From contig CAISDH010000003.1 in NCBI GenBank assembly GCA_903884115.1, positions 330 through 64,329 on the forward strand: a stretch of 64,000 bases of DNA. The letters run 5' to 3'. A program made the position numbers and the translations under genes. This document shows, piece by piece, positions 10,173-62,695 of this stretch; positions within the stretch are counted from its first letter, which is position 1; the number at the start of each line of letters is the position of its first letter. The notes under the pieces are model-generated. The model saw only the letters and a list, made by a program, of their open reading frames with translations. It did no database searches and was not told where the DNA came from. This DNA is from an uncultured Candidatus Micrarchaeota archaeon. Lineage in GTDB: Archaea > Micrarchaeota > Micrarchaeia > Micrarchaeales > Micrarchaeaceae.

Positions 10173-10565
10173 ATGGTCGGTTGCATGGGATTGATCTACA
10201 CAAGCGTAAGGGTCAAGGACCTGAAAAAGTCGATAGCGTTCTACACAAAGCAGATGGGGATGCATATCACGGGCAGGCGGAGCTGGGTGCCGGGCGAGAA
10301 GGTGGTGATGCTCGCTGCGAAGGACAGCAAGCAGCGCCTGAATCTGATGTACTTTGCAAAGAACTGCGTGCACTACGAGCCGTACAAGAGCGGTTCTGAG
10401 CTTGATCATCTGATGTTCGAAGTAGACGACGCAAAGAAGCTGTACAACAAGCTAGTGGCGAACGGCGCGCCAGTGGCCATGAAACTATGGGAAGATGAAG
10501 GCTTCGCCATGGGTTTTGTGAAGGACCCGAACGGGATCTGGATAGGATTGCGTAGCGGCAAGTAA
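10173..10565 (+). CDS. VOC/glyoxalase-family protein
   Basis: 130-aa tail of track ORF 9588..10565. The motifs LIYTSVRVKDLKKSIAFYT and LDHLMFEVDD fit the glyoxalase fold. The upstream part of the track ORF is antisense to the ABC ATPase. Confidence 0.7.
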   Translation: MVGCMGLIYTSVRVKDLKKSIAFYTKQMGMHITGRRSWVPGEKVVMLAAKDSKQRLNLMYFAKNCVHYEPYKSGSELDHLMFEVDDAKKLYNKLVANGAPVAMKLWEDEGFAMGFVKDPNGIWIGLRSGK

Positions 10566-13706: not shown

Positions 13707-15209
13707 ATGAAGATACTCTGCTTAAACCCTCCAATAAGCATTCCTGCGAGCTGGGGAAAACCGTTTTTAAAACAACCATTGGGGCTAGCATACATAGCGG
13801 GGGTCCTGCAAAAAAACAATGAAGTAACCTTTCTTGATGCTAATGCAGAAGGATTTGTGAAAGTTAAAACGGTGGGCGATCGCCATTATTATGGGCTTTC
13901 TAAAGAGGAAATAATCGGTAGAATATCTAAGATAAATCCTGAATTCATTTGCATGAGTATGATGTTCACTGTCAATTCAATAAATGCCTTGGATGTGCTT
14001 GGTGAGATAAAGAAGAACTTTCCGAAAGTGATAACGGTAGTCGGAGGCGCCCATGTCACAGTTAGGCCCGAAGAAACACTTAGAAATGCTGCTGTGGATT
14101 TCATTGTTTTGGGGGAGGGGGAAAAGACTGTGGAAGAGCTATTTGACTGCATATCGAAGAATGGTGACCTGAGTAAGATAAAGGGCGTTGGGTTCAAGAA
14201 TAACGGTGAGATTAAGATAAATGAGGCAAGGGAGCGCATACGAAACCTTGATGAGTTGCCTTTCCCTGCACTGGACTTGTTGCCGATGGGACTGTATTTC
14301 AAGGCTTCCGCTTCCAATCACTTGTTGCCGATGGGAATGTGGGGACAGAGAAAAGAGCGCGATACGTACAATGACAGGTGGACAAGCATAGTAACCAGCA
14401 GAGGGTGCCCCATGAACTGCATATTCTGCTCTATACATCTTTCAATGGGTAAATTATTCAGGTCCAGAAGTCCTGAGAATGTCATTTCTGAAATAGAAAG
14501 GGACTACGAGCAATTTGGCATACGCCACTTCTGTTTAGAAGACGACAACATGACCTGGGATACTGAGAAATTCGGAAGGATATGCGACATGATAGTAGAA
14601 AAAAATCTGAAAATAACATGGTCCGCACCAAACGGCATCAGAGCAGACAGGATAAATGAAGAACTGGCCAAAAAGATGAAACTGTCGGGATGCAAGATGG
14701 TGTACCTATCCCCCGAATCGGGTTCACAGAGAGTATTGGACGAGATAATAGACAAGAGGATGAAACTGCAAGACGTAGAGACTGCGGTGGAGCTGTTATC
14801 CAGAAACGGAATAGAAGTAAATCTGTACTTTGTTATAGGATTGCCAGGGGAGACAAAAGAGGAGACATGGAAATCTATAAATTTAGCCAAAAGACTGAGA
14901 AAGAAAGGGGCTAGTCGTGCAGGATTTAGTATAGCCACCCCATTATACGGAACGAGACTGTACAAAGAGGCTGTAGAAAAAGGGTATTTTGACCCAAACA
15001 CCGATCCTTCGAAGCTTTCTCCGCTTGAAGCGAACATGCAGATCCCCGAATGGACAAAAGAGGAGATCCAGTCGCTAGCAACCTTGGCATACTGGACCGT
15101 CAACTTGTCTTTATTACAGAAGATCACTATGCCTCTGAGATATCCGGCAAGAATACCTAGTTGTGTGGCCTCTCTCATAACAAATATAAGTAAAGTTGTC
15201 CAAAACTGA
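13707..15209 (+). CDS. B12-binding-domain radical SAM protein (class B rSAM), function unknown
   Basis: N-terminal cobalamin-binding-like domain (VVGGAHVT), CxxxCxxC cluster CPMNCIFC, GLPGET motif. Confidence 0.8.
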   Translation: MKILCLNPPISIPASWGKPFLKQPLGLAYIAGVLQKNNEVTFLDANAEGFVKVKTVGDRHYYGLSKEEIIGRISKINPEFICMSMMFTVNSINALDVLGEIKKNFPKVITVVGGAHVTVRPEETLRNAAVDFIVLGEGEKTVEELFDCISKNGDLSKIKGVGFKNNGEIKINEARERIRNLDELPFPALDLLPMGLYFKASASNHLLPMGMWGQRKERDTYNDRWTSIVTSRGCPMNCIFCSIHLSMGKLFRSRSPENVISEIERDYEQFGIRHFCLEDDNMTWDTEKFGRICDMIVEKNLKITWSAPNGIRADRINEELAKKMKLSGCKMVYLSPESGSQRVLDEIIDKRMKLQDVETAVELLSRNGIEVNLYFVIGLPGETKEETWKSINLAKRLRKKGASRAGFSIATPLYGTRLYKEAVEKGYFDPNTDPSKLSPLEANMQIPEWTKEEIQSLATLAYWTVNLSLLQKITMPLRYPARIPSCVASLITNISKVVQN

Positions 15210-15271: not shown

Positions 15272-15424
15272 ATGCCAGGGTTGCAATCTCCGCGACAGTC
15301 TGCCGGAGTGATGAGTTTCTACGATGCGCCAACAAAAGGGCCTAAGATAGGACCAAAGCTCGTGCTTATCTCCGTCGTGGCGTTCGCGCTCGTGATAGTC
15401 GTCATAGACCATTTCTTAGCATAA
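15272..15424 (+). CDS. secG: Preprotein translocase Sec61beta (archaeal SecG)
   Basis: 50-aa ORF below the track cutoff: MPGLQSPRQSAGVMSFYDAPTKGPKIGPKLVLISVVAFALVIVVIDHFLA. It has the typical SAG..FYD..KI.PK plus C-terminal TM. TATA CGTTTTTATATTT lies upstream. Confidence 0.6.
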   Translation: MPGLQSPRQSAGVMSFYDAPTKGPKIGPKLVLISVVAFALVIVVIDHFLA

Positions 15425-15476
15425 GCCTTTCTGTCGACCTTAATGCAGGTGCTGCTTTCTTAACTTCGTAAAGCGT

Positions 15477-15950
15477 CTATTCTTGCGGCAATTCTATCAA
15501 TTGCCCTTTTATATTTAGACCGGATTTAAACATCATTTCTGCTTGCTTCTGGGCTAGCTTATCATCGAAGAATCTCCGAAATGCGTCCTCGAGGTATCCT
15601 TCCATGCTGTTTTTTGCCCTCTTTCCCAACGATATTCCTCTTATCAGTTTTGCTATATTGCCATTGGCCTTTAGACTGTTCTGCATCTCCTCCCATTCAT
15701 TATCGGAGTCTGTGCGCTTCTTGCTGGCTTCCTCCATTATATTCTTATTTGAATTCTTAATCATCAGAGCATTATTGCCTGAAACGGTCGCTTCCCTGCG
15801 AACGGCGTACCAGATTGCATCTTCGAGGTTCTTCTTATTCGTAGTTCTTTCCGGCAGGCCCCTCCGCAGTTCAAGCACCGGATCTTCATGAGCGTAGTTG
15901 CTATGCATTTCACTATCTTTTCCTCTTATTTCAACTTTCCTGCATTCCAT
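15477..15950 (-). CDS. Orphan charged helical protein (157 aa)
   Basis: Long ORF preceded by conserved upstream element copy U7. No recognisable domain. Confidence 0.45.
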   Translation of the reverse strand: MECRKVEIRGKDSEMHSNYAHEDPVLELRRGLPERTTNKKNLEDAIWYAVRREATVSGNNALMIKNSNKNIMEEASKKRTDSDNEWEEMQNSLKANGNIAKLIRGISLGKRAKNSMEGYLEDAFRRFFDDKLAQKQAEMMFKSGLNIKGQLIELPQE

Positions 15951-16040
15951 AGCATCATGCTCATATATGCTTCAAATTTCCTAATACTTATACTCTCCTT
16001 TTAGTTGCAGTTTGTTTGCGGAAGTCTGTGATTTGGTAAA
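15951..16040 (-). promoter_or_regulatory. Conserved upstream element, copy U7 (TTTACCAAATCACAGACTTCCGCAAACAAACTGCAAC ... ATAAGTAT ...)
   Basis: Gene-proximal about 90 nt. The distal 37 nt is near-identical to U6 and U3. Confidence 0.6.
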
Positions 16041-16249
16041 CGGGCATATCTCATTTTAGTCCAGGTGGTCTGTTGCAAAGGAATAGCGAAAACGACAACT
16101 GGCACTAGGGCGTTTTCGTGTTCAAATCTTAGTTGCACAGCAGGTGCCTGATCTGCGCTCAGGTGATGCGCAGAGATCCTGCTGTGCTGTGTTGCCGGTA
16201 GCGGGCGCGCTGCGCCCTGGGCGTCATCTGTATATTGGCTGCTTCACTT

Positions 16250-17371
16250 TTACTTTCTGTTGAGCCTCTTTACGGCTTCCGTTGCTTTGGCTATCTTCCT
16301 GAAGCTGTCCGCCTTGGCCTGATAAGTTGCTTCGTCTGCCGTTCCTGCCCCTGCAGCTGCAGCGGCTTCGTCACACTCCTCTGCCGCTTCACGATACCTT
16401 GCAATCTGGGATAGCTGCTCAGCGGCCTTCGCGTGCTCCTCTACTGGATTCTTTCCAACATACTCTATGAGCCACTGCGCACAGAGTTGAGGCTCCCAGC
16501 CCAATGCCTTGCCTATCATATCATAAGCGCGCTTGGCTGCGTCGCCTGCTTCCTCGAACCTTTTTAATACCTCAACGACCTTCCCTGGATCGCCAGAGCA
16601 CGCACTCAAGATAGACTTCATGTCTGTTATTGTCCCTGATTTCAGCAGCCACTCCGTTGCGGATGCTTCCCATGGTACCTCTGCATCCAGGAGCGCGTTT
16701 GCAGCTTTCCTCTGGCTTGTCTTTGTTTCTATCTTGGCGTACAGCTTAGATGCCTGGTCGCGCTTCTTCTCTGCCGCGGCCATGTCTCCGTATTTCTCGC
16801 ACAGCTTCTGACTTTCGCGCTGCGTAACTTTGCGCCCTTCCGCTTCTATTGCTTTCTCAGCGCACTCTTCCGCCTCAACGAACTTCTTTTTGCTTGCGTA
16901 CTTGGATTCTGCCCACGCCCACAACTGCGCCTCGTCTTCCCCTGCATTCTTGCCCATCTTCACTGCATCGTGGAAGTTCCCGTCCAACACATACTTTTCC
17001 TTCGCAGCAATCCACGCGTCAGCCGGATTGATTCCGGATAGCTTGTCTATACGCAGCGAAGCTGACTCCTCGTGCAGTCCGTTATAGTCGAGCAGCGTGG
17101 CCGCCTGATTTATATCGCTCTCGCTTCCTGCCTTCTCTAAGCATTCAACTGCTCCTCTCCAATCGCTTTCACTCAAACACGTCTCTGCTTTGTTTCTGAG
17201 CTTGTCGGGATCAGTGGCCTCTTCTATCAATGCATTATGCTTTGCTATCTGTGCCTCCAGCTTGTCCCTGTCCTCCTGGCTTAGCACCTCAAGCACATCA
17301 GGAGTTATCTCGCTGAACGCTTCCTTCGCCTTTTCAATTGTCTTATCGTCTTTTATGGTTGCTTTCGGCAT
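16250..17371 (-). CDS. Orphan alpha-helical repeat protein (373 aa, A/E/K-rich)
   Basis: Long ORF with recurring A-x-E-C-x-E-K-A-G-like helical motifs. Preceded by element copy U5. Confidence 0.5.
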   Translation of the reverse strand: MPKATIKDDKTIEKAKEAFSEITPDVLEVLSQEDRDKLEAQIAKHNALIEEATDPDKLRNKAETCLSESDWRGAVECLEKAGSESDINQAATLLDYNGLHEESASLRIDKLSGINPADAWIAAKEKYVLDGNFHDAVKMGKNAGEDEAQLWAWAESKYASKKKFVEAEECAEKAIEAEGRKVTQRESQKLCEKYGDMAAAEKKRDQASKLYAKIETKTSQRKAANALLDAEVPWEASATEWLLKSGTITDMKSILSACSGDPGKVVEVLKRFEEAGDAAKRAYDMIGKALGWEPQLCAQWLIEYVGKNPVEEHAKAAEQLSQIARYREAAEECDEAAAAAGAGTADEATYQAKADSFRKIAKATEAVKRLNRK

Positions 17372-17459
17372 ATACTCTCCCTTTTCTCTTCCTTTTATCC
17401 AGATATATATGCTTTTCTTTTCATTACAGCTTGCTTGGTGTTGTTTGCTATTTTGTAAA
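17372..17459 (-). promoter_or_regulatory. Conserved upstream element, copy U5 (TTTACAAAATAGCAAACAAC ... AAAAGCATATATAT ...)
   Basis: Same architecture and spacing to the ATG as U1 and U2. Confidence 0.6.
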
Positions 17460-17524
17460 GGCGAGTGTTTTTTCGAGTATGCTCTGCCTCAAAGAAACAG
17501 AGAACCCAAAAGGAAATAGGGCGT

Positions 17525-18085
17525 CTACAGCGCAGAGTCCTTCCTAAGCAATTTATTTATCGAATCGGCCAGGTCTGCCTTCTCAGGCGGCTTCTCCTTC
17601 GATTCCTTAGCCTCCTTCTTTTTCTTCTTTTCTTCTTCTTTTTTCTCCTTCTTTTCCGCCTCAGCTCTCTTCTTCTCTCTCTCGGATTCCTCCTTCTTCA
17701 TCTTTGCTTCGGCTTTCTTATTTATGCCCCTCTTGAGCAGCTTATCTATGGACTCTTCTATGCTCTTATCAGTAATCGGCTTCTCCTTCTTCGCCATCGC
17801 CATTTCCTTCTTTTCCTTCGCAGCTTCATCCCTTCGTCTCTTCATCTCATTATCCGCTTCCTTCCTTTTGATCTTCTTATCCGCCTCGTCTATTTTCCTC
17901 TTCTTCTCGGCTTCCTCCTTCTTCATCTCTGCCTCCGCTTTTTTATTTATGCCCTTCTCGAGTATCCTGTTTATGGAGTCTGCTATTGCCTTATCGCTGG
18001 CGCTGGTGTCTTTATCAGTTGTTCTTAGCAACTGCATTGTTCTCGTTTGTGCCGCTACTGTTTTTTCATCAGCCATCTCATTCAC
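17525..18085 (-). CDS. Lys/Glu-rich coiled-coil protein with internal tandem repeats
   Basis: Three copies of the [DE]SI[ND][KR][LI]L motif. Two are extended by GINKKAEA[KE]MKKEE. SD AGGTGA lies directly upstream of the ATG. Confidence 0.5.
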   Translation of the reverse strand: MNEMADEKTVAAQTRTMQLLRTTDKDTSASDKAIADSINRILEKGINKKAEAEMKKEEAEKKRKIDEADKKIKRKEADNEMKRRRDEAAKEKKEMAMAKKEKPITDKSIEESIDKLLKRGINKKAEAKMKKEESEREKKRAEAEKKEKKEEEKKKKKEAKESKEKPPEKADLADSINKLLRKDSAL

Positions 18086-18131
18086 CTGCCTGCGCGACTT
18101 AAACTGATTCCTTGTTCCGTACGGGTGGCAT

Positions 18132-18227
18132 TCACATCTCGCTGTTGTACTCGTCCAGTTCCTGCTTTTCTATGGCAACCCTAAGGATCTCCTTTATCTC
18201 CGACGCTGTTGCAACGCTTCCCCTCAC
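18132..18227 (-). CDS. Possible 31-aa leader ORF (GTG start) directly behind element U6
   Basis: GTG lies at the position where other copies carry the start codon (TTAGTGTGA). Sequence MRGSVATASEIKEILRVAIEKQELDEYNSEM. Speculative. Confidence 0.2.
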   Translation of the reverse strand: MRGSVATASEIKEILRVAIEKQELDEYNSEM

Positions 18228-18307
18228 ACTAACATTATATGACGCCGGAGATACTTATGCATTCGTATTTCTGGCAGTTTGTTTGCAGAAACTTGTGATT
18301 TTGTAAA
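18228..18307 (-). promoter_or_regulatory. Conserved upstream element, copy U6 (TTTACAAAATCACAAGTTTCTGCAAACAAACTGCCAGAAA ... ATAAGTATCT ... CATATAATGTTAGTGTGA)
   Basis: 33/40 identity to U3 over the distal 40 nt, with the same proximal boxes. Confidence 0.6.
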
Positions 18308-18368
18308 CTCTGAAGCATCTAGTCGAGTGCATTTCTGCTGTAAATTGATAAGGAAAAGAATGGGCCTG

Positions 18369-30584: not shown

Positions 30585-31577
30585 TCACTCTGCCAGCAGT
30601 TTATCTATTGCCTTCGATATCTTCTCCTCGTTCGGAAGGTAGTACTGCTCATAGCCAGGGAATGGATATGGGATGCTGGGTGAGGCCACGCGCATTATAG
30701 GTGCATCCAATTCGAAAATGGCCTCTTCTGCTATTCTGGCTGAGATCTCTGCACCTACTCCGAAGCTTCTGGGCGCTTCGTGCACTATCAGCACCTTGCC
30801 AGTCTTCTTCGCGCTCTTTATTATCGCATCGTCATCTATCGGGTTTATTGTGCGCAGGTCCACTATGTCCGCAGAAAGGTTCTTCTTCTCCACTACTTTC
30901 TTCACCATGTTCACCATCGTGCCGTATGTGATGATGCTCAGGTCGTCGCCTTCCCTGATCTTGTTTGCCTTGCCTATCTCGACCTCATAGCTGCTTTCAG
31001 GGACTTCCTGCTTGAACAGCCTGTACAGCATGGTCGGCTCCAGAAACATCACTGTGTCGTGCATGTGCGACGCACGTATGAGCAGGCCTTTTGCATCGTA
31101 TGGCGATGAGGGCTCTACCACTATCAGTCCGCCAGGATGCGAATAGTATGCTTCAGGGCTTTCGGAATGGTGCTCAAGGGCCCTAACTCCGCCGCTGACG
31201 GGCATCCTCACTATCATAGGCACCGTGAACGTCGAGCGCGTCCTGCTCCTGTATCGCGCAGCGTGGCTTACGAGCTGGTCGAAGCCAAGGTACGAGAATC
31301 CTGCAAACTGTATCTCCGGAATCGGAAGCATGCCTGCGATCGCCATGCCTATCGATACGCCGATTATGCCTGACTCTGCAAGCGGCGTATCCATCACTCT
31401 GCCTGGGCCGTACTTGTCGAACAATCCATCTGTGACCCTAAAGACGCCGCCGTCCTTTCCAATGTCCTCTCCAAGCATGACTGACGTGGGGTTTTCAGTC
31501 AATATTGCATCAAGTGCGCTGTTTATCGCATTTGCCATGTTCATCTGCATTTTATCACGCTTGCCAGAACTTCTCAT
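30585..31577 (-). CDS. 2-oxoacid dehydrogenase E1 component beta subunit
   Basis: Transketolase-like pyrimidine-binding and C-terminal domains. The probable start is M at 31550 (MQMNMANAINSAL). Confidence 0.9.
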   Translation of the reverse strand: MRSSGKRDKMQMNMANAINSALDAILTENPTSVMLGEDIGKDGGVFRVTDGLFDKYGPGRVMDTPLAESGIIGVSIGMAIAGMLPIPEIQFAGFSYLGFDQLVSHAARYRSRTRSTFTVPMIVRMPVSGGVRALEHHSESPEAYYSHPGGLIVVEPSSPYDAKGLLIRASHMHDTVMFLEPTMLYRLFKQEVPESSYEVEIGKANKIREGDDLSIITYGTMVNMVKKVVEKKNLSADIVDLRTINPIDDDAIIKSAKKTGKVLIVHEAPRSFGVGAEISARIAEEAIFELDAPIMRVASPSIPYPFPGYEQYYLPNEEKISKAIDKLLAE

Positions 31578-32625
31578 TCACCGCATCGTCATACTCATCT
31601 TTAAGCGCTTTGGGCATGAAGCTGTACAGATGCTCGAACATGTCTTTCGGGTCTGGCTTGAATGCCTCTGCCTTCTCAACTGCTTCGTCTATCTTTTTCT
31701 TGAACTCGTCCTGCATGCTCGCTTCCATGGCGTCGCTCCAGAGTGCCTTGCCTGTAAGGTAATTCCTGACGCGCAGTATGGGGTCCCTCTTCGCCCAGGC
31801 CTGCACCTCTTCATCTTTCCTGTACTTCGTAGGATCGTCTGAAGTTGTGTGCATGCTCATCCTGTACGTGACGCATTCTATCAGCGTTGCGCCATTCTTT
31901 GAGTCTGCTATCGCATCGCTCACTGCCTTGTACACTGCAATCACATCGTTGCCATCCACTTGCAGGCACTTTATGCCTGCGGCAAAGGCTTTCTGCGCAA
32001 GCGTCTCCGTCGCGCTCTGCCTGCTTCTCGGCACGGATATTGCCCACTGGTTGTTCTCTATGATCATGACAAGAGGTACCTTGAAAACCCCCGCAAAGTT
32101 CATCGCCTCGTAGAAATCCCCTTCTGAAGTGCCTCCGTCTCCCACATAGCTTACGACTGCACTGTCCTTGTTTTCATACTTCTGAGCAAATGCTATGCCT
32201 GTTGCATGGAGGAGCTGGGTTGCCACTGGCACTATGTATGGTAAGCCTTTCACACTCTGTGGTATCATGTTTCCCTCTTCAAAGCCCCTCCAGTACAGGA
32301 AGAACTTGTCAAGTGGAAGGCCCCTTACGATAAAGACGCCATGCTGCCTGAAATTCGGCACGAATATGTCGTTCTGCCTCATGGCCATGGCGCTGCCGAT
32401 CTGCGTTGCCTCTTGGCCGATAGACGGAGCGTATGTGACAAGCCTGCCCTGCCTCTGGAGGCTTATGCACTTTGCATCGACTGCCCTTGTAAAGGAGAGG
32501 AACTTGTACATCTCGATTATCTTGCTGTCATCGAGACCTTTTGGGAAGAGCGCAGCGTCCACGCTGCCTTTCTCGTCTAGCACTTGCAGATAGTCCACAG
32601 AGCCCTCAAAGACTTTTTTAAGCAA
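31555..32625 (-). CDS. 2-oxoacid dehydrogenase E1 component alpha subunit (TPP-binding)
   Basis: TPP motif GDGGTSEGDF...N. I infer a TTG start at 32625 (LKKVFEGSVDYLQVLDEKG). The track ORF runs to 32733, but that extension covers TATA TTTATAAAT and element U1. Confidence 0.85.
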   Translation of the reverse strand: MLKKVFEGSVDYLQVLDEKGSVDAALFPKGLDDSKIIEMYKFLSFTRAVDAKCISLQRQGRLVTYAPSIGQEATQIGSAMAMRQNDIFVPNFRQHGVFIVRGLPLDKFFLYWRGFEEGNMIPQSVKGLPYIVPVATQLLHATGIAFAQKYENKDSAVVSYVGDGGTSEGDFYEAMNFAGVFKVPLVMIIENNQWAISVPRSRQSATETLAQKAFAAGIKCLQVDGNDVIAVYKAVSDAIADSKNGATLIECVTYRMSMHTTSDDPTKYRKDEEVQAWAKRDPILRVRNYLTGKALWSDAMEASMQDEFKKKIDEAVEKAEAFKPDPKDMFEHLYSFMPKALKDEYDDAVNEKFWQA

Positions 32626-32721
32626 ACAATCGTCCGCATATATCTGCAAAAATTTATAAATACATAAGCCGAAAACCCACGATACAGATTCAGATTTTAA
32701 TACATGCTTCCCTCGTATGCC

Positions 32722-32810
32722 TTTACAAAACAACTAACTTTTACACTTAAACTGTCGGAAAAAGTAATGCATATATATCTGAAAAGCGAAGAATATGTGT
32801 TAGTGATTGA
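32722..32810 (+). promoter_or_regulatory. Conserved upstream element, copy U1
   Basis: TTTACAAAACAACTAAC...AAAAAGTAATGCATATATATCT...TTAGTGATTGA-ATG. Gapless, about 78% identity to U2 with identical spacing to the start codon. Confidence 0.65.
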
Positions 32811-32963
32811 ATGTCCAAACAATATGTGCCTACATCAGCAACCGCTGTTGTTGAACGTCTGAAAGAGCAAGGCGCATCTGACAATCAGATAGCGCGCATC
32901 GTGCACCGCCACACAGGTACCGACACGGGTGCTGTCAGGAAGCTTCTCAGGAACTGGGAATAG
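32811..32963 (+). CDS. Small ORF A1 (50 aa), possible HTH-like protein
   Basis: MSKQYVPTSATAVVERLKEQGASDNQIARIVHRHTGTDTGAVRKLLRNWE. Below the track cutoff. The ATG lies at the conserved distance from U1. Confidence 0.45.
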   Translation: MSKQYVPTSATAVVERLKEQGASDNQIARIVHRHTGTDTGAVRKLLRNWE

Positions 32964-32995
32964 AAGTACTTCTGCCCACAGAACCTGCCATTCCC

Positions 32996-33032
32996 ATAAA
33001 GCGCTTCGGCGAACTCACCCCTCGCCGGAGCC
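32996..33032 (+). pseudogene. Remnant of small ORF B (copy B1), about 37 nt
   Basis: ATAAAGCGCTTCGGCGAACTCACCCCTCGCCGGAGC matches the IKRFGELTPPE core of B2/B3 with a 1-nt indel. There is no start codon and the rest is deleted. Confidence 0.6.
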
Positions 33033-33041
33033 TTCCTGGGT

Positions 33042-33176
33042 TTAGCTCCCATCCTTAAAAACTTCCAGGATGTCTTCTTCTCTTTTCTCCACGTACATAT
33101 TCAACTGCTTCTGGAAGCTTTCTCTATGCTCTGAGGGTCCTTGATGCCCGGCATAAGAATGGATTGCAATGCAGGC
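33042..33176 (-). pseudogene. 3'-terminal remnant of a paralog of the 382-aa gene (copy C1)
   Basis: Translates to ...GHQGPSEHRESFQKQLNMYVEKREEDILEVFKDGS*, compared with ...QHGEAPSADVLNEWIKELEERYARYLKDRREDFREVFKEWFSQ* in 34742..35890. An in-frame stop lies upstream. Confidence 0.55.
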
Positions 33177-33228
33177 CTAACAAGCTTCATAGCATCTATG
33201 TTTTAGTGTGCGTCTGCCCTCGCATGAC

Positions 33229-33317
33229 TTTACAAAACAACGAACTTCAACAAGTGAATTGTAATAAAAAGTAAAGTATATATATTTGGAAAAAGAATAA
33301 TATATGTTAGTGATTAT
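33229..33317 (+). promoter_or_regulatory. Conserved upstream element, copy U2
   Basis: TTTACAAAACAACGAAC...AAAAAGTAAAGTATATATATTT...TTAGTGATTAT-GTG. Confidence 0.65.
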
Positions 33318-33599
33318 GTGAAGCAGAACCTCGATAGTCAGAATGGCATAATGGCTCTCCGCAGAGCATCGCCGCTAGAAATTGCAGAGGCGAAGCTCAA
33401 TAAGACCGGCGATGTCATAGACTACAGTAATAATGTATGCGCTATTCTCGATCGCATTGCAGAAACCCTGGCTCCACTCGGGCATGATAATGACATCCCT
33501 ACCTCTTCTCGCACAGCAGAGGCATTGGCTGCGCTAGTGAAAAGCGGCGATGTCAACGCCTACGGTCTGTTCCTTCTTCTGAGAGGGGAGCAGCAATGA
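33318..33599 (+). CDS. Small ORF A2 (93 aa, GTG start), orphan
   Basis: The C-terminal LVKSGDVNAYGLFLLL is homologous to A3 LFAKTGNVDAYNAYLSEIDLL. The stop overlaps the B2 start (ATGA). Confidence 0.5.
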   Translation: MKQNLDSQNGIMALRRASPLEIAEAKLNKTGDVIDYSNNVCAILDRIAETLAPLGHDNDIPTSSRTAEALAALVKSGDVNAYGLFLLLRGEQQ

Positions 33600-33751
33600 C
33601 TGGCAACAATAGAGATGCAGAGCTCATTCTCATCAAGCGCTTCGGCGAACTCACCCCTCCGGAGCTTGTCGTGCTACAGAAGCAGTACGACAGATGCGAG
33701 ATGGATGCGCTCAACAAGGAATGGAGGTTCTACAAGTTCCAAAACGAATAG
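33596..33751 (+). CDS. Small conserved ORF B2 (51 aa)
   Basis: MTGNNRDAELILIKRFGELTPPELVVLQKQYDRCEMDALNKEWRFYKFQNE. About 60% identical to B3. Below the track cutoff. Confidence 0.6.
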   Translation: MTGNNRDAELILIKRFGELTPPELVVLQKQYDRCEMDALNKEWRFYKFQNE

Positions 33752-33790
33752 TTTTTATAATAGTGTGAATTGAAAGAGAGACGAGATTTG

Positions 33791-34189
33791 ATGCAGCAAG
33801 AAAAAACACAACTGAAGACTGACGCAGACAAACTTGTAGCTCTTCAGAGTTCAGGGCACATTAAAGAGGCGGTTGCATTTGCCATACGCAAGATGGATAG
33901 TGTAGAAAGCGCGATTCAGATCTTCAGGAAAGCAGGCATGACCGAGGCCGCCGATGGCGTAGCAAAAATTTCTCTATACGTGGATTTAAAGCACTTTGAT
34001 GGATATGCCAACCGTCTCGCTCATTCAAAAGGCATATCTGAGATAGCAGAGATATTGAGATCAAGGAAAGCTGCGCAGAAGCCTGCCGACCTGGTCCAGC
34101 TTGAAGGCGCCAAGAAGGACGAAGTGCTTGGCGTGTTGGCTTCAATATTTCCTGATGATGTTAAAAAGTTAGCTCCGCTGCTACGCTAA
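33791..34189 (+). CDS. Orphan helical protein (132 aa from ATG 33791; track ORF starts at TTG 33770)
   Basis: Preceded by a truncated core of the upstream element (TTTTTATAATAGTGTGA). No recognised domain. Confidence 0.45.
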   Translation: MQQEKTQLKTDADKLVALQSSGHIKEAVAFAIRKMDSVESAIQIFRKAGMTEAADGVAKISLYVDLKHFDGYANRLAHSKGISEIAEILRSRKAAQKPADLVQLEGAKKDEVLGVLASIFPDDVKKLAPLLR

Positions 34190-34204
34190 AGCATCTCAGA
34201 ATAC

Positions 34205-34270
34205 TCGGATCCAGTCCCTAAAAACCTCGCGGATGCTCCTTTTTTTTATCTTCCGCGTACCTTTCTCTCC
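34205..34270 (-). pseudogene. Short 3'-terminal remnant of a paralog of the 382-aa gene (copy C2)
   Basis: CCAGTCCCTAAAAACCTCGCGGATGCTCC...CGCGTACC aligns with the 3' end of 34742..35890 (CCATTCCTTAAAAACCTCCCTGAAATCTTCC...) and with C1. Confidence 0.45.
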
Positions 34271-34280
34271 CCTCGACTAC

Positions 34281-34367
34281 TTTGCAAAACAACAAAGTTC
34301 TGCAAATAAATTGCCAGAAAACCGAGCATATAAGTATCTTCTACGTTATATAATTTAGTGTGATGGA
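34281..34367 (+). promoter_or_regulatory. Conserved upstream element, copy U3
   Basis: TTTGCAAAACAACAAAGTTCTGCAAATAAATTGCCAGAAA...CATATAAGTATCTT...TTATATAATTTAGTGTGATGGA-ATG. Confidence 0.65.
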
Positions 34368-34550
34368 ATGTCTGCATCAAAAAACAACGTAACTGGACCT
34401 TCTGAACAAAAACTACGCGAATTCTTTGAAGCGATAAAACCTGTCCTTACAAACCATGCATCGTCTCTGTTCGCGAAGACCGGCAATGTCGATGCGTACA
34501 ATGCTTATTTATCGGAGATTGATCTCCTCACAAATCTTGAGAGGAGATGA
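34368..34550 (+). CDS. Small ORF A3 (60 aa), orphan, homolog of A2
   Basis: Track ORF. The stop overlaps the B3 start (ATGA). Confidence 0.5.
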   Translation: MSASKNNVTGPSEQKLREFFEAIKPVLTNHASSLFAKTGNVDAYNAYLSEIDLLTNLERR

Positions 34551-34705
34551 CCGGCAATAGCTGCGAAGAGCAGACCATTATAATCAAGCGCTTCGGCGAA
34601 CTCACCCCGCCGGAGCTAGTCCTGCTCCAGAGACAGTATGCTAAATGTGAACTGGACCGGCTCAACCAGGAATGGAGGTTCTACAACAAACTTCCAGCAA
34701 AATAA
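34547..34705 (+). CDS. Small conserved ORF B3 (52 aa)
   Basis: MTGNSCEEQTIIIKRFGELTPPELVLLQRQYAKCELDRLNQEWRFYNKLPAK. Confidence 0.6.
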   Translation: MTGNSCEEQTIIIKRFGELTPPELVLLQRQYAKCELDRLNQEWRFYNKLPAK

Positions 34706-34741
34706 ATACCGGTCTTCTTCTGCTTTCAGACAGATGTTCTG

Positions 34742-35890
34742 TTACTGGCTAAACCATTCCTTAAAAACCTCCCTGAAATCTTCCCGTCGGTCTTTTAAGT
34801 ATCTCGCATATCTTTCCTCGAGCTCTTTTATCCACTCATTCAGGACGTCCGCGCTGGGTGCTTCTCCGTGTTGTGCGTCTTTCATGCCTGAAAACTCCAG
34901 AAGCATTTCAGGTGTCGGGACAAGCTTGCCTCCCTCACCTATGTAGATATATCCATTGTATTCCGGACGTAGAGCGGCACCATAACTACAAATATTTCCG
35001 GACGATTCTATCAACATGTTAACTATTACCTGTTTAAGCTCTTCTCTAACTTCAGGAGATAATTCATCAAACTTTCTTTTCATATCCTCCAATTTTTCCT
35101 TGTAAGCAGGTCTGGCCCTTTCAAAAGATACATCCTCTTCCAACATCCCGTTCCTGATACCGTTGATACTAAATAGAAGCCCATCTACTTCCAGCATCTC
35201 TCTGACTCCGGACAGTGGCCTCATCTTGCGATACAGATGCGATTCTATGCCTCCGTCCGCCCATCTATACTCTCTGATGCTAACTTCCTCAAATCCAAAA
35301 CAATTCGGTGTAAACGCTTTGCTTAGTGAATCTGCCAGCCACTTCATACTCTGTCCACAAGATATGTAGTAATCTCCAATCCTGAGCTCTTCTATGACTT
35401 TTGCAAGCGGTTCGTATCTCTGGAGTGCACAATTAGAATACTTTGTGAAAATAACATCTATGCCTTTCATCTCTGCATAAAGTTGATTTAATGATTGTCC
35501 TTCTTTAGAAAGCCGGTTGACTGTTTCATTATTTATATCAAGTATGTAAAAAATCAGCTTCCTGCTCTTCCCGTTCCAATCAAAGTATGCTTCAGTCCTA
35601 TTTCCTGAGCTTGATTCCTTCGTAATATTTCCTCCGATTTGTTTTATGCTCTCCTTTATGGCATCCTTCTGATCTACCCAGTCGACAAGAATCATCTCTG
35701 TAGCTCCTGTTGCCGCAATGAGATGTGCCACATCCTTGCCAGATGCCAGGTAAATTGTCTTGAGCGGCTTATCGGAGGGATTCACTACTTCCTTCACAGC
35801 CGTAAGCGAATTCATGGTGACTTTGCCAAGCACGTTGCTGATTTTTTCAAAGGCATTCTGCTCTATTTTGACTTCTTTTGTTTTGTACAA
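34742..35890 (-). CDS. Orphan 382-aa protein (copy C3, the only intact copy); weak Rossmann/methyltransferase-like N-terminal half
   Basis: The TTG start is preceded by TTATAGTGATCGC (SD-like). The pattern IYLASGKDVAHLIAATGATEMILVD ... GIDVIFTKY is Rossmann-like but lacks a clear GxGxG. Confidence 0.55.
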   Translation of the reverse strand: MYKTKEVKIEQNAFEKISNVLGKVTMNSLTAVKEVVNPSDKPLKTIYLASGKDVAHLIAATGATEMILVDWVDQKDAIKESIKQIGGNITKESSSGNRTEAYFDWNGKSRKLIFYILDINNETVNRLSKEGQSLNQLYAEMKGIDVIFTKYSNCALQRYEPLAKVIEELRIGDYYISCGQSMKWLADSLSKAFTPNCFGFEEVSIREYRWADGGIESHLYRKMRPLSGVREMLEVDGLLFSINGIRNGMLEEDVSFERARPAYKEKLEDMKRKFDELSPEVREELKQVIVNMLIESSGNICSYGAALRPEYNGYIYIGEGGKLVPTPEMLLEFSGMKDAQHGEAPSADVLNEWIKELEERYARYLKDRREDFREVFKEWFSQ

Positions 35891-36037
35891 GCGATCACTA
35901 TAACTTCTTAAATCCGATCATCGAAAACTTCGTGCATCTCTTTTTCTGTCTTCTATATGTGCCTTCATCTGTTTCTGAAATATATATGCTTTGCTTTTTG
36001 TTGCAATTTATCTGTGAAAGGTTGTTATTTTGTTAAG
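35891..36037 (-). promoter_or_regulatory. Conserved upstream element, copy U4 (extended leader)
   Basis: CTTAACAAAATAACAACCTTTCACAGATAAATTGCAACAAAAAGCAAAGCATATATATTT, followed by an about 90-nt leader that contains a 16-codon uORF. Confidence 0.55.
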
Positions 36038-36127
36038 CCACTACTTTACAATAAATGTCAATTTCCAGACTGCAAAAGATCGTGTACCCTGCTCTTCGAA
36101 TGTCTTTTATAGTTCGCTTGTCCAACA

Positions 36128-61159: not shown

Positions 61160-62695
61160 ATGGCATTGGTGCACGGAATGGCACATGTTGCCTGTGGGTG
61201 TCGTGATTATATCCTAGCAGCAAAAACACAGCTTAGAGAGGGGCAGGAGCGCCATCTGGTGCGCCCACTATCATCGGACAAGTTTGATTTTGTAGCTATT
61301 AATGTGCCTTCCACTTTCCAGTTGGGGATAATCCCAGAGGACGAAGCCCCGCCTTGGGGGCTATTGCGCGTTGTGGCATGCGCCAGAGAGAAATTTGGTT
61401 TTAATGCAGGAATATTGGATGCGCACAAACTGAAGCTTAGCCTGAATGAGATTATAGAACAGATAGAGATAAGCGGTGCAAAGCTGATCGGAATCAACCC
61501 GACATCCGTAAATGTATCGGAAGGCAGGCGTATTGCCGACGCTTGTGATGAACGGAAGATACCTTACATTCTTGGCGGAGTGCATGCAACATTGTCTCCA
61601 CAGATTGCCCGTGGGGATTTCCCAAACGCATTCGCCATGGTGCGCGGAGACGGCGAACTTGCAATAGTGGAGATCATTCGCGCTGCTCTTGAGAGCGGAC
61701 CAAAATCCGAAGGAGCGGGAATATACTACAATGGGCACGAGATAGGCAGCAGAACGGACTACGCAAAAAGGATCAATCCTGCAGATGTTCCACTGATACG
61801 GCAAGATGAGTATGTTGAAGAGCCCATATACACGCACGTTATTTCCTTGGATGAAGAGCAACGAACAATACACGAAGCGACATTGTATGTAACGACAGGG
61901 TGCCCGTTTGAGTGCACGTTCTGCGCAGCTCCTGTCATGAACAACAAAGGTAATGGCCTGGCTTATCTCAGGCCGCGTATGTCAAGAATTGTGGATGAAG
62001 TGGAATACACAGTCAATAATCTGAAGGCTGACGCGATTCACTTCCTGGACGATATGGCATTCATAAGCGGAAGCAGCATCAAGGAATTTTACGTCGAATT
62101 GCAGGAACGCCACATGACCGGCACATTCATCTGGAGAGGACTTACCCGGGTGCCTGTTGTGCTGAGGGCTGATTTTAGCGATAACGTGACTGAACTTGCA
62201 AAAGAGACTGGACTCTGGAAACTGGCGTTGGGAATAGAGAGTGGCAACGACAAGATGCTTAGACAGATCAAAAAAGAGATAACCAAAGAGCAGGCAGTCC
62301 AGGCCATTGAGAAGTTGTCGCGTCATCAAGTGCAAACGAAGGGGTTCTTCATCATGGGCTTTCCAGGCGAAACCGAGGACCAAATAAAAGAGACACGCGA
62401 GTTTATCCTGCTCTTGAAAGACAAAGGAATGACAGATGTGTCTGTTTATCAGTTCAAGCCATACCCCGGAACGTTGGAGCGGCAACGGCTTGTAGAATTG
62501 AGGCCTGAACTTGCAAATAAGCTCGATTATTTCGAACCTCCTGAAGGAGGGAAAAGCGACCCGAGATACGGCTTTGGCAAAGGTGCATGGTTGCCTGACG
62601 ACCAGCTGATAGCCGAAATACCTAGCTGGAAAGTAAAAGAGTATATATTAGGAACCATGAAAGAGTTCTACGGTTCTTATCTGAGAGTTGATTGA
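61160..62695 (+). CDS. B12-binding-domain radical SAM protein (paralog class of 13707..15209); start uncertain
   Basis: ILGGVHATLSP (B12-like domain), CPFECTFC cluster, GFPGETED. A GTG near 61258 is a plausible true start. Confidence 0.75.
   Translation: MALVHGMAHVACGCRDYILAAKTQLREGQERHLVRPLSSDKFDFVAINVPSTFQLGIIPEDEAPPWGLLRVVACAREKFGFNAGILDAHKLKLSLNEIIEQIEISGAKLIGINPTSVNVSEGRRIADACDERKIPYILGGVHATLSPQIARGDFPNAFAMVRGDGELAIVEIIRAALESGPKSEGAGIYYNGHEIGSRTDYAKRINPADVPLIRQDEYVEEPIYTHVISLDEEQRTIHEATLYVTTGCPFECTFCAAPVMNNKGNGLAYLRPRMSRIVDEVEYTVNNLKADAIHFLDDMAFISGSSIKEFYVELQERHMTGTFIWRGLTRVPVVLRADFSDNVTELAKETGLWKLALGIESGNDKMLRQIKKEITKEQAVQAIEKLSRHQVQTKGFFIMGFPGETEDQIKETREFILLLKDKGMTDVSVYQFKPYPGTLERQRLVELRPELANKLDYFEPPEGGKSDPRYGFGKGAWLPDDQLIAEIPSWKVKEYILGTMKEFYGSYLRVD
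61176..61205 (+). repeat. Second copy of the 30-nt segment from the SDR gene
   Basis: GAATGGCACATGTTGCCTGTGGGTGTCGTG. It lies in the 5' region of the rSAM ORF, in a different frame from the SDR copy. Confidence 0.9.

Follow-up and report, generated by a model that had tools for sequence, protein, structure and literature searches.

We report that a 3.4-kb island (positions 32660-36089) in the DNA of an uncultured Candidatus Micrarchaeota archaeon (contig CAISDH010000003.1, positions 330 to 64,329 of the forward strand; the whole 64,000-nt stretch is called the window below) carries a tandem array of small orphan genes, situated between the 2-oxoacid dehydrogenase (OADH) operon and a gene for a DUF763 protein. 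Its plus strand bears three units, each composed of an upstream cassette (U), a small variable open reading frame (ORF) A and a conserved ORF B of about 50 aa; on the minus strand these units are separated by 3' ends of another gene, C, present as one full-length copy (382 aa) and three remnants. The G+C content of the island is 41-47%, against 52-55% in the flanks. Judged from sequence comparisons, this is an old and partly maintained array and no fresh amplification. As the explanation that we favour, with a probability of about 0.6, we propose a hypervariable island that has been inherited vertically at one fixed position in the chromosome and shaped by old segmental duplications and subsequent decay, with genes linked into a regulon by U and with C as a methyltransferase.

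Repeat units, small genes and C-tail remnants

The features of the island are:

32704-32814, plus strand: U1, consisting of an upstream box, a predicted B recognition element (BRE) and TATA box, a short leader with an AGTGAT Shine-Dalgarno (SD) sequence, and the ATG of A1; nhmmer E 4.6e-28
32811-32963, plus strand: A1, a 50-aa ORF without sequence kinship to A2 or A3, called as a gene in independent assemblies
32975-33040, plus strand: B', a pseudogene remnant of B (…PIKRFGELTP), whose fragment 32989-33031 is 91% identical to B2 over 43 nt (E 2.6e-7)
33045-33176, minus strand: r1, a remnant of a C-type 3' end (…SFQKQLNMYVEKREEDILEVFKDGS, stop); tail-profile E 7.7e-8
33210-33320, plus strand: U2, cassette 5' of A2; nhmmer E 1.7e-25
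33318-33599, plus strand: A2, 93 aa, GTG start, two K-x-G-D-V-x-x-Y hairpin motifs, stop overlapping the B2 start (ATGA)
33596-33751, plus strand: B2, conserved, 51 aa (KRFGELTPPELV…CE…EWRFY); ratio of nonsynonymous to synonymous rates (omega) 0.2
33770-34189, plus strand: D2, a singleton orphan of 139 aa (TTG start) or 132 aa (ATG start), called as a gene in other assemblies
34199-34276, minus strand: r2, a short C-type 3' end (…IREVFRDW…, stop); tail-profile E 0.015; DNA repeat family D7
34264-34371, plus strand: U3, cassette 5' of A3, the most diverged copy; nhmmer E 7.5e-21
34368-34550, plus strand: A3, 60 aa, one K-T-G-N-V-D-A-Y motif, stop overlapping the B3 start (ATGA)
34547-34705, plus strand: B3, conserved, 52 aa, paralogue of B2
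34742-35890, minus strand: C3, 382 aa, TTG start at 35890, converging on B3 across a 36-nt gap
35908-36007, minus strand: r4, a frameshifted C tail (MKAHIEDRKRDAR/EVFDDRI, stop); tail-profile E 0.006 (35921-36007)
35966-36041, minus strand: U4, upstream box and TATA box, predicted to drive C3; nhmmer E 3.5e-15; inverted-repeat pairs I1-I3

Sensitive BLASTN of the 32.5-36.3 kb region against the whole window demonstrates that the repeats are real and far beyond chance. B2 (33596-33735) and B3 (34547-34686) are 78% identical over 140 nt (E 1.2e-26; 70% over 46 aa in protein, E 4e-21), U1 (32707-32808) and U2 (33214-33315) are 79% identical over 102 nt (E 6.5e-19), U3 matches U1 and U2 at 64-68% over ~115 nt (E 3.7e-5), and the inverted U4 (35964-36040) matches them at 73-77% (E 2.6e-7 to 5e-9; U2-U4 77% over 73 nt). 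A first-pass annotation, made from the sequence alone, had recognized repeated copies of a module here; they are indeed direct, collinear tandem units with significant similarity, as expected of a tandem duplication, and the similarity extends beyond the promoter elements, being significant for B2/B3 and for B'/B2. The arrangement is not an assembly artefact, because four other samples yielded independent short contigs that match positions 32704-34230 with 100% identity; no copy-number variation is visible in these contigs over that interval.

The B family is tiny, with 7 clusters among 5.8 billion proteins. A scan of a genome collection with the B alignment yielded a single true relative, which carries the label Micrarchaeota, and a spurious match in a bacterium; a scan of metagenomes gave one weak locus. 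Orthologous and paralogous B pairs have synonymous divergence (dS) of 0.63-0.96 and omega of ~0.2, and B is under purifying selection in both intact copies, B2 and B3. The remnant B', on the other hand, lacks the start codon and the 3' half and carries a 2-nt insertion after …PIKRFGELTP.

The A proteins are variable. A K-x-G-D/N-V-x-x-Y hairpin motif is common to A2, A3 and the A protein of a related genome (L004), to which A2 is weakly similar (E 0.002); the motif occurs 3 times in the window, always in A2 or A3, against 0.125 occurrences expected, although the pattern was derived from these very proteins and the count is partly circular. The ATGA overlap of A and B is also found in another relative, L001, and in L004 the two ORFs lie 2 nt apart. 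Residues 11-33 of A1 are helix-hairpin-helix-like, with weak matches to HTH_38 (E 0.0055) and to a helix-hairpin-helix region of topoisomerase V (E 0.004). At the A3/B3 junction we noted a hairpin (34512-34555, TCTCCTC…GAGAGGAGA; -15.9 kcal/mol, z -2.0) that would sequester the SD sequence of B3; as a conserved device it was rejected, since the analogue at A2/B2 is weaker and the hairpin is not conserved in L004 or L001.

The 132-aa ORF that had been assigned to the second unit is present as D2, and to its description we can add that it is preceded by the 3' promoter/SD portion of a U-type cassette (TTTTATAAT-AGTGTGAA-TTG). Among 5.8 billion proteins D2 has no relative other than itself, and no similarity was found to the E proteins of L004 and L007 (see below) or to other U-linked orphans. 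Searches of A, B, D2 and the other U-linked proteins in Pfam, PHROGs, PADLOC and NCBIfam gave nothing significant, and sequence searches of A1, B and D2 against the PDB gave nothing significant save weak helical-repeat matches of A1.

The C-type ends were more difficult to establish. Plain tBLASTN of C3 against the window leaves r1 (E 1.4) and r2 (E 5.6) without significance, so by this measure the proposed alignment of remnants to C fails; it succeeds with a profile of C-family tails from outside the window, searched against the six-frame translation of all 64 kb, in which the best four matches are r1, the tail of C3 itself (E 6.4e-5), r4 and r2, all on the minus strand and inside the locus. 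The full-length C profile (window excluded) also retrieves r1, as its second-best match in the six-frame translation (E 0.032). Both ends noticed earlier exist, though in shorter form: r1, described as ~45 C-type codons, has ~28 alignable codons among 44 open ones, and r2, described as ~65 nt, has only 8-14. A fourth C tail, r4, between U4 and the start of C3, had escaped the first-pass annotation; it is supported by BLASTN as well (33042-33130 versus 35908-35995, E 3.7e-5), and it forms the leader between the U4 TATA box and the C3 start. The decay suspected in the earlier description is borne out, as B' carries its insertion and lacks a start codon, and frameshifts or truncations affect r1 and r4. 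No remnants of central or N-terminal parts of C were detected by profile search between r1 and U2 or between r2 and U3.

The island in related genomes and the age of its copies

The OADH/DUF763 site carries an island in three related genomes, namely the window, L004 and L007. The flanks are collinear up to 32659 and from 36089 (~83% nucleotide identity to L004, 77-80% to L007), and between these borders the similarity is reduced to patches. Because the same site is occupied in three species whose flanks have diverged to ~83%, we regard the island as old and vertically inherited. In L004 the order is OADH, E (374-381 aa), C (375 aa, minus strand), U-A-B, an intact 59-aa "miniC" and DUF763. The miniC gene (10196-10375, minus strand) joins the first ~8 residues of C to the last ~45, converges on A-B and adjoins DUF763; it may encode a functional tail-only peptide. 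The L007 site (on a 1.2-Mb contig, given in the orientation of the window) comprises OADH, an IS-interrupted ORF preceded by U, a U-53 aa-E segment (E 448-594 aa), C and DUF763, with C (374 aa) converging on E. The insertion sequence (IS) belongs to the DDE_Tnp_1 type (L007 11663-12595 and 12711-13070) and apparently truncates a 92-aa ORF with a putative U promoter at this hotspot. The orphan family E (L004 7215-8360, plus strand; L007 9258-11042, minus strand; 374-594 aa, 45% identical), which converges on full-length C, does not occur in the window; searches of it in Pfam, PHROGs and PADLOC found no match.

A-B and C also occur apart. A-B is found without C in L001 and on the P0004 contig (in both cases next to Nre) and, in a diverged form, in L009, a metagenome-assembled genome labelled Candidatus Micrarchaeota; C is found without A-B in L007, L008, L012 and L013, and one C homologue lies beside Fic and TnpB. 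C3 is 42% identical in protein sequence to C of L004 and 40% to C of L007, against ~83% DNA identity in the flanks and a nonsynonymous divergence (dN) of 0.034 in DUF763 (dS 0.69). C evolves >10 times faster than the flanks, yet it is full length in all three species, and the fast evolution earlier attributed to the locus is in this sense confirmed.

The copies within the window are themselves old. The dS of B2/B3 is 0.81, compared with 0.63-0.96 for interspecies B pairs, so that, by sequence, the B paralogues date back to the species split. U1 and U2 are 79% identical to one another and 76-78% identical to the U copies of L001 and L007. The remnant r1 shares 68% of its nucleotides and 16 of 24 aa with the L004 miniC (75% of nucleotides in a separate alignment) and 54% of its nucleotides with the C3 tail, and it is nearer to the C tails of L004 and L007 than to C3. 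Neither the B2/B3 dS, nor the U1/U2 identity, nor the kinship of r1 with miniC sets the within-genome copies apart as closer than orthologues, as a recent origin would lead one to expect.

These ages bear directly on the scheme originally proposed, which begins with the in-place triplication of a complete U-A-B module with full-length C and continues with the decay of one B and two of the C copies. We consider it unlikely. U, A, B and a C tail do follow one another in the same collinear order in all three units, clear disabling indels are present in B' and r1, and B' is slightly closer to B2 (33 of 35 nt identical) than to other B genes. The divergence of B2 and B3, however, is no lower than that between species, and r1 resembles the L004 miniC and the L004/L007 C tails more than it does C3; L004 has its intact miniC at the very position of r1, therefore tail-only genes predate the decay. 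A partial duplication with a breakpoint in the 3' end of C would account for the same pattern without two large deletions, and A-B and C are separable in other genomes.

The C family and the U cassette

C is a small and very divergent family. An exhaustive HMMER search of 1.84 billion proteins retrieved 18 representatives, while a word-indexed homology search found C itself alone, a scan of the genome collection with C3 alone found nothing, and exact-sequence look-ups of C3 and of DUF763 returned no record. AlphaFold2 modelling from an alignment of 14 sequences gave a pLDDT (per-residue confidence) of 81 and a pTM (predicted template modelling score) of 0.79; the single-sequence model (pLDDT 44) was useless. 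In the former model the N-terminal ~225 aa adopt a class I S-adenosylmethionine (SAM) methyltransferase fold, a seven-stranded alpha/beta/alpha Rossmann-like sheet, and the C-terminal ~150 aa are helical. Foldseek searches with the model agree: the top PDB matches listed are all methyltransferases, and so are nearly all BFVD matches listed, with MnmM, TPMT, Dot1L, NNMT, RsmG, KsgA and cap N7-methyltransferases at E 1e-5 to 1e-3. For residues ~40-225 the PDB matches reach E 4e-5 to 5e-4 with probability 1.00, and the target-normalised TM score to MnmM is 0.56.

In class I SAM methyltransferases an acidic residue at the end of strand beta-2 binds the ribose of SAM. The sole fully invariant column of the C-family alignment A4 is D70, and in the model it lies at the end of beta-2 (strand 65-70). 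Further conserved elements are a DVxF strand and an LKxGG motif (DVxF…LKxGG). Motif I, with the consensus Y-x-x-S-G-x-D-V, contains a single conserved Gly/Ser pair and an Asp53 that is nearly invariant; it is atypical compared with E/DxGxGxG. No curated methyltransferase profile matches C: the best Pfam hit is Methyltransf_31 (E 0.14, in 1 of 14 members), NCBIfam gave nothing, and a PDB sequence search gave no methyltransferase match. The earlier statement that A, B and C belong to no nameable family thus stands as far as sequence searches go, and is superseded for C by its predicted structure, which identifies C as a divergent class I SAM-methyltransferase-fold protein. On this model C probably methylates some substrate. 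The C-terminal end carries a conserved F-R-E-V-F-K-D-W tail, and the remnants in the island correspond to this part. The N-terminal ~60 residues of C (helices with beta-1 and beta-2) match internal segments of three large uncharacterised metagenomic proteins, P0021 (2443 aa), P0023 (940 aa) and P0024 (1921 aa), with E 8e-8 to 1.5e-4; none of the three has confident Pfam domains.

The U cassette had been described as part of the module, a view that does not hold, since three further copies in the window and the copies in relatives head other orphan genes. The additional copies in the window are:

15948-16045, minus strand: U copy 5' of a 157-aa orphan (15477-15950); nhmmer E 6.7e-12
17398-17464, minus strand: U copy 5' of a 373-aa orphan (16250-17371); nhmmer E 2.1e-7
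18224-18310, minus strand: U copy 5' of a small ORF of ~31 codons and a 186-aa orphan (17525-18085); nhmmer E 9.5e-14

In relatives, L001 and L007 have two copies each, and U is present in L004. All 11 aligned copies lie directly upstream of an ORF. According to the 11-copy alignment, the upstream box reads TTTACAAAAYMAC-AAACTTY-ACAAA-AAAYTGC and contains two ACAAA…AAACT half-sites ~20 nt apart; on its 3' side follow a purine-rich BRE-like AAAAAG and a TATA-type box TATATATA, i.e. G(C/T)ATATATATCTGGAAA. In most copies AAAAAG-N4-G(C/T)ATATATAT is found ~35 nt upstream of the start codon, this leader being made up of ~20 nt, AGTGAT and 3-5 nt before the start codon. The 3' end of archaeal 16S rRNA is complementary to AGTGAT, and most of the copies have a recognisable SD sequence of the (A)GTGAT type; U4 and the copies 5' of the 373-aa and 186-aa orphans deviate in spacing or SD sequence. 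The core pattern of U occurs 6 times in the window against 0.00 expected. The order of the boxes and their fixed short distance to the gene start are those of an archaeal BRE/TATA promoter, and U appears to be a lineage-wide archaeal promoter cassette of ~110 nt. We rejected the idea that U is a structured non-coding RNA, as RNAalifold predicts 0 pairs for the 11 copies and the Rfam matches in the window are only tRNAs. A scan for sigma-70 promoters and terminators was uninformative, the host being an archaeon, and a literature search on promoters of Micrarchaeota found nothing relevant.

The extra copies define a second cluster of U-linked orphans (15400-18320, minus strand), which encodes the 157-aa and 373-aa proteins and a K/E-rich, internally repeated protein of 186 aa; Pfam and NCBIfam gave no significant match for any of the three. 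Residues ~17-40 of the 373-aa protein (FSEITPDVLEVLSQEDRDKLEA) weakly resemble the B core (FGELTPPELVVLQKQYDRCEMDA); the BLASTP E of its N-terminus against four B proteins is 0.1-0.8, which may reflect remote homology or chance. At the OADH edge of the island, the mechanically called ORF of the OADH E1-alpha subunit (31555-32733, minus strand, 392 aa, TTG start) extends into U1. Because gene calls give its L004 and L007 orthologues a length of 356 aa (MLKK/RxF…), the true start is probably near 32625, without overlap with the island. A literature search on DUF763 found nothing relevant, and two B12-binding radical SAM proteins elsewhere in the window (13707-15209 and 61160-62695, both on the plus strand) belong to the ordinary chromosomal context.

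Origin of the island and comparison with known systems

We propose the following history. In each unit U would drive a variable A that is translationally coupled, through the overlapping ATGA, to the conserved B, and C3 on the opposite strand would likewise be driven by a U copy, U4. The array would have arisen by old segmental duplication or by unequal recombination between direct repeats, with the U copies on the plus strand and the C tails on the minus strand as candidate substrates. Decay by indels would then have produced B', r1, r2 and r4, the singleton D2 would have been gained or retained, and selection would have maintained both intact copies of B as well as C. Because U also heads other orphan genes here and in relatives, the U-linked genes are probably members of one regulon, under a putative factor that binds the upstream box.

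Several observations weigh against this explanation. For A, B, D2 and the remaining U-linked proteins, no relative with a known function could be detected. C could be an inactive or repurposed fold, given its atypical motif I and the lack of a matching Pfam model. We infer the promoter and regulon status of U from the position of the sequence. Finally, the duplications cannot be reduced to one unique recombination history, and a simple unequal crossover does not predict r4 upstream of C3.

One may also ask whether the units form a conflict system, be it toxin-antitoxin-like, a modification-based defence or a device of symbiont-host interaction, in which C acts together with A/B. The more than tenfold rate of C combined with its full length in three species, the hotspot character of the site (with an IS in L007, and with another C homologue next to Fic and TnpB), and the convergent arrangement of C with a two-gene operon of small proteins would all suit such a role. 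We nevertheless find it doubtful: searches of PADLOC, PHROGs, Pfam and NCBIfam matched none of the components, we recognised no effector domain such as a nuclease, and the link between A-B and C is not obligate. The proteins structurally closest to C are tRNA, small-molecule, histone and cap methyltransferases, with no restriction-modification DNA methylase annotation among the top matches listed. No component matched a curated model of a defence or toxin-antitoxin system in PADLOC, Pfam or PHROGs, the sole PADLOC hit (D2 with MTase_II, E 0.031) being insignificant.

A more elaborate version, which we regard as a long shot, combines this role with the regulon: in a DPANN-type symbiont, a private, U-marked regulon of fast-evolving small proteins would comprise an undescribed modification-based interaction or conflict system formed by C, its C-terminal helix as a separately encoded piece (the intact miniC of L004; r1, r2 and r4 in the window) and A-B. 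U might then, for example, be under the control of A1 or of B, which is possibly a DNA binder of the ribbon-helix-helix type, and the tail-only miniC peptides would serve the methyltransferase as decoys or regulators. If so, the C tails retained next to every A-B unit would be functional and not debris.

It is very improbable that the island is a degenerate integrated provirus, plasmid or transposon, bounded by inverted U1 and U4 with U as the terminal repeat: U1 and U4 do form a 68-nt inverted repeat (74% complementary) ~45-60 nt from each edge of the variable interval 32660-36088, the G+C content is 8-10 points below that of the flanks, all island genes are orphans and an IS has entered the same site in L007. 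Divergent promoters, however, account for the inverted pair, and in L004 no U lies at the edges of the island. Every other U copy is single, points towards an ORF and has a start codon as its last element. Genes for an integrase, a transposase or another known mobile-element function are missing from the island, which also has no ORF with a Pfam or PHROGs match and no tRNA gene. Relatives of U, B and C are absent from 2.9 million viral contigs and from phage and plasmid records, and the occupation of one site in three species with flanks at ~83% identity speaks for old vertical inheritance.

We therefore return to the hypervariable, vertically inherited island with its U-linked regulon. Events in which parts of a variable island are duplicated in tandem and decay are of a known kind, and by itself the island reveals no new mechanism. 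Its components, by contrast, had not been described before: a ~110-nt cassette shared by many orphans, the tiny 50-aa B family, and a methyltransferase-fold family that evolves very fast and has tail peptides encoded separately. If our reading is correct, the locus offers a compact, delimited case of the birth, duplication, reshuffling and loss of orphan genes in a reduced archaeal genome. U, used as a ~110-nt search profile, would then yield a list of the whole co-regulated orphan set in these uncultivated archaea. C would represent a small, previously unclassified branch of the SAM-methyltransferase fold, and its more than tenfold faster evolution relative to its neighbours would make it a candidate for host-symbiont or self/non-self functions.

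Compared with class I SAM methyltransferases such as MnmM (8h27), thiopurine S-methyltransferase (2bzg), RsmG (3g8b) and Dot1L, C has the same predicted fold, the Asp that ends the predicted beta-2, the DVxF strand and the LKxGG motif. It differs from them in having no Pfam or NCBIfam profile match, in its atypical glycine-rich motif I, in a three-strand beta-meander after beta-2, and in the ~150-aa helical C-terminal domain with the F-R-E-V-F-K-D-W tail. The array resembles tandem segmental duplications in general in its direct collinear units, in genes truncated at unit borders and in frameshifts in redundant copies; unlike in these, the divergence between its copies equals that between interspecies orthologues, and purifying selection acts on two intact copies of B. 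With hypervariable islands and integration hotspots it shares the fixed site, the collinear flanks, a content that differs between close relatives, a G+C content below that of the flanks, an IS in one relative and the presence of pseudogene debris. In contrast to such islands it holds no imported known defence or mobile genes; what it holds are lineage-private variants of U, A, B, C and E, apparently reshuffled in place.

For U itself, the closest parallels are shared promoters of the regulon type that mark sets of accessory genes, for instance the hrp box promoters of HrpL (PMC4149516) and promoter elements of Fusarium effector genes derived from miniature inverted-repeat transposable elements (MITEs) (PMC3599309). 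U is like both in that one extended, conserved upstream sequence stands before many otherwise unrelated, lineage-specific genes. It is unlike both in its archaeal TATA/BRE type and in the conservation of ~110 nt that include the leader, the SD sequence and the start codon, and no transposon features were found in it. As with the hrp box and the Fusarium elements, U could predict further member genes.

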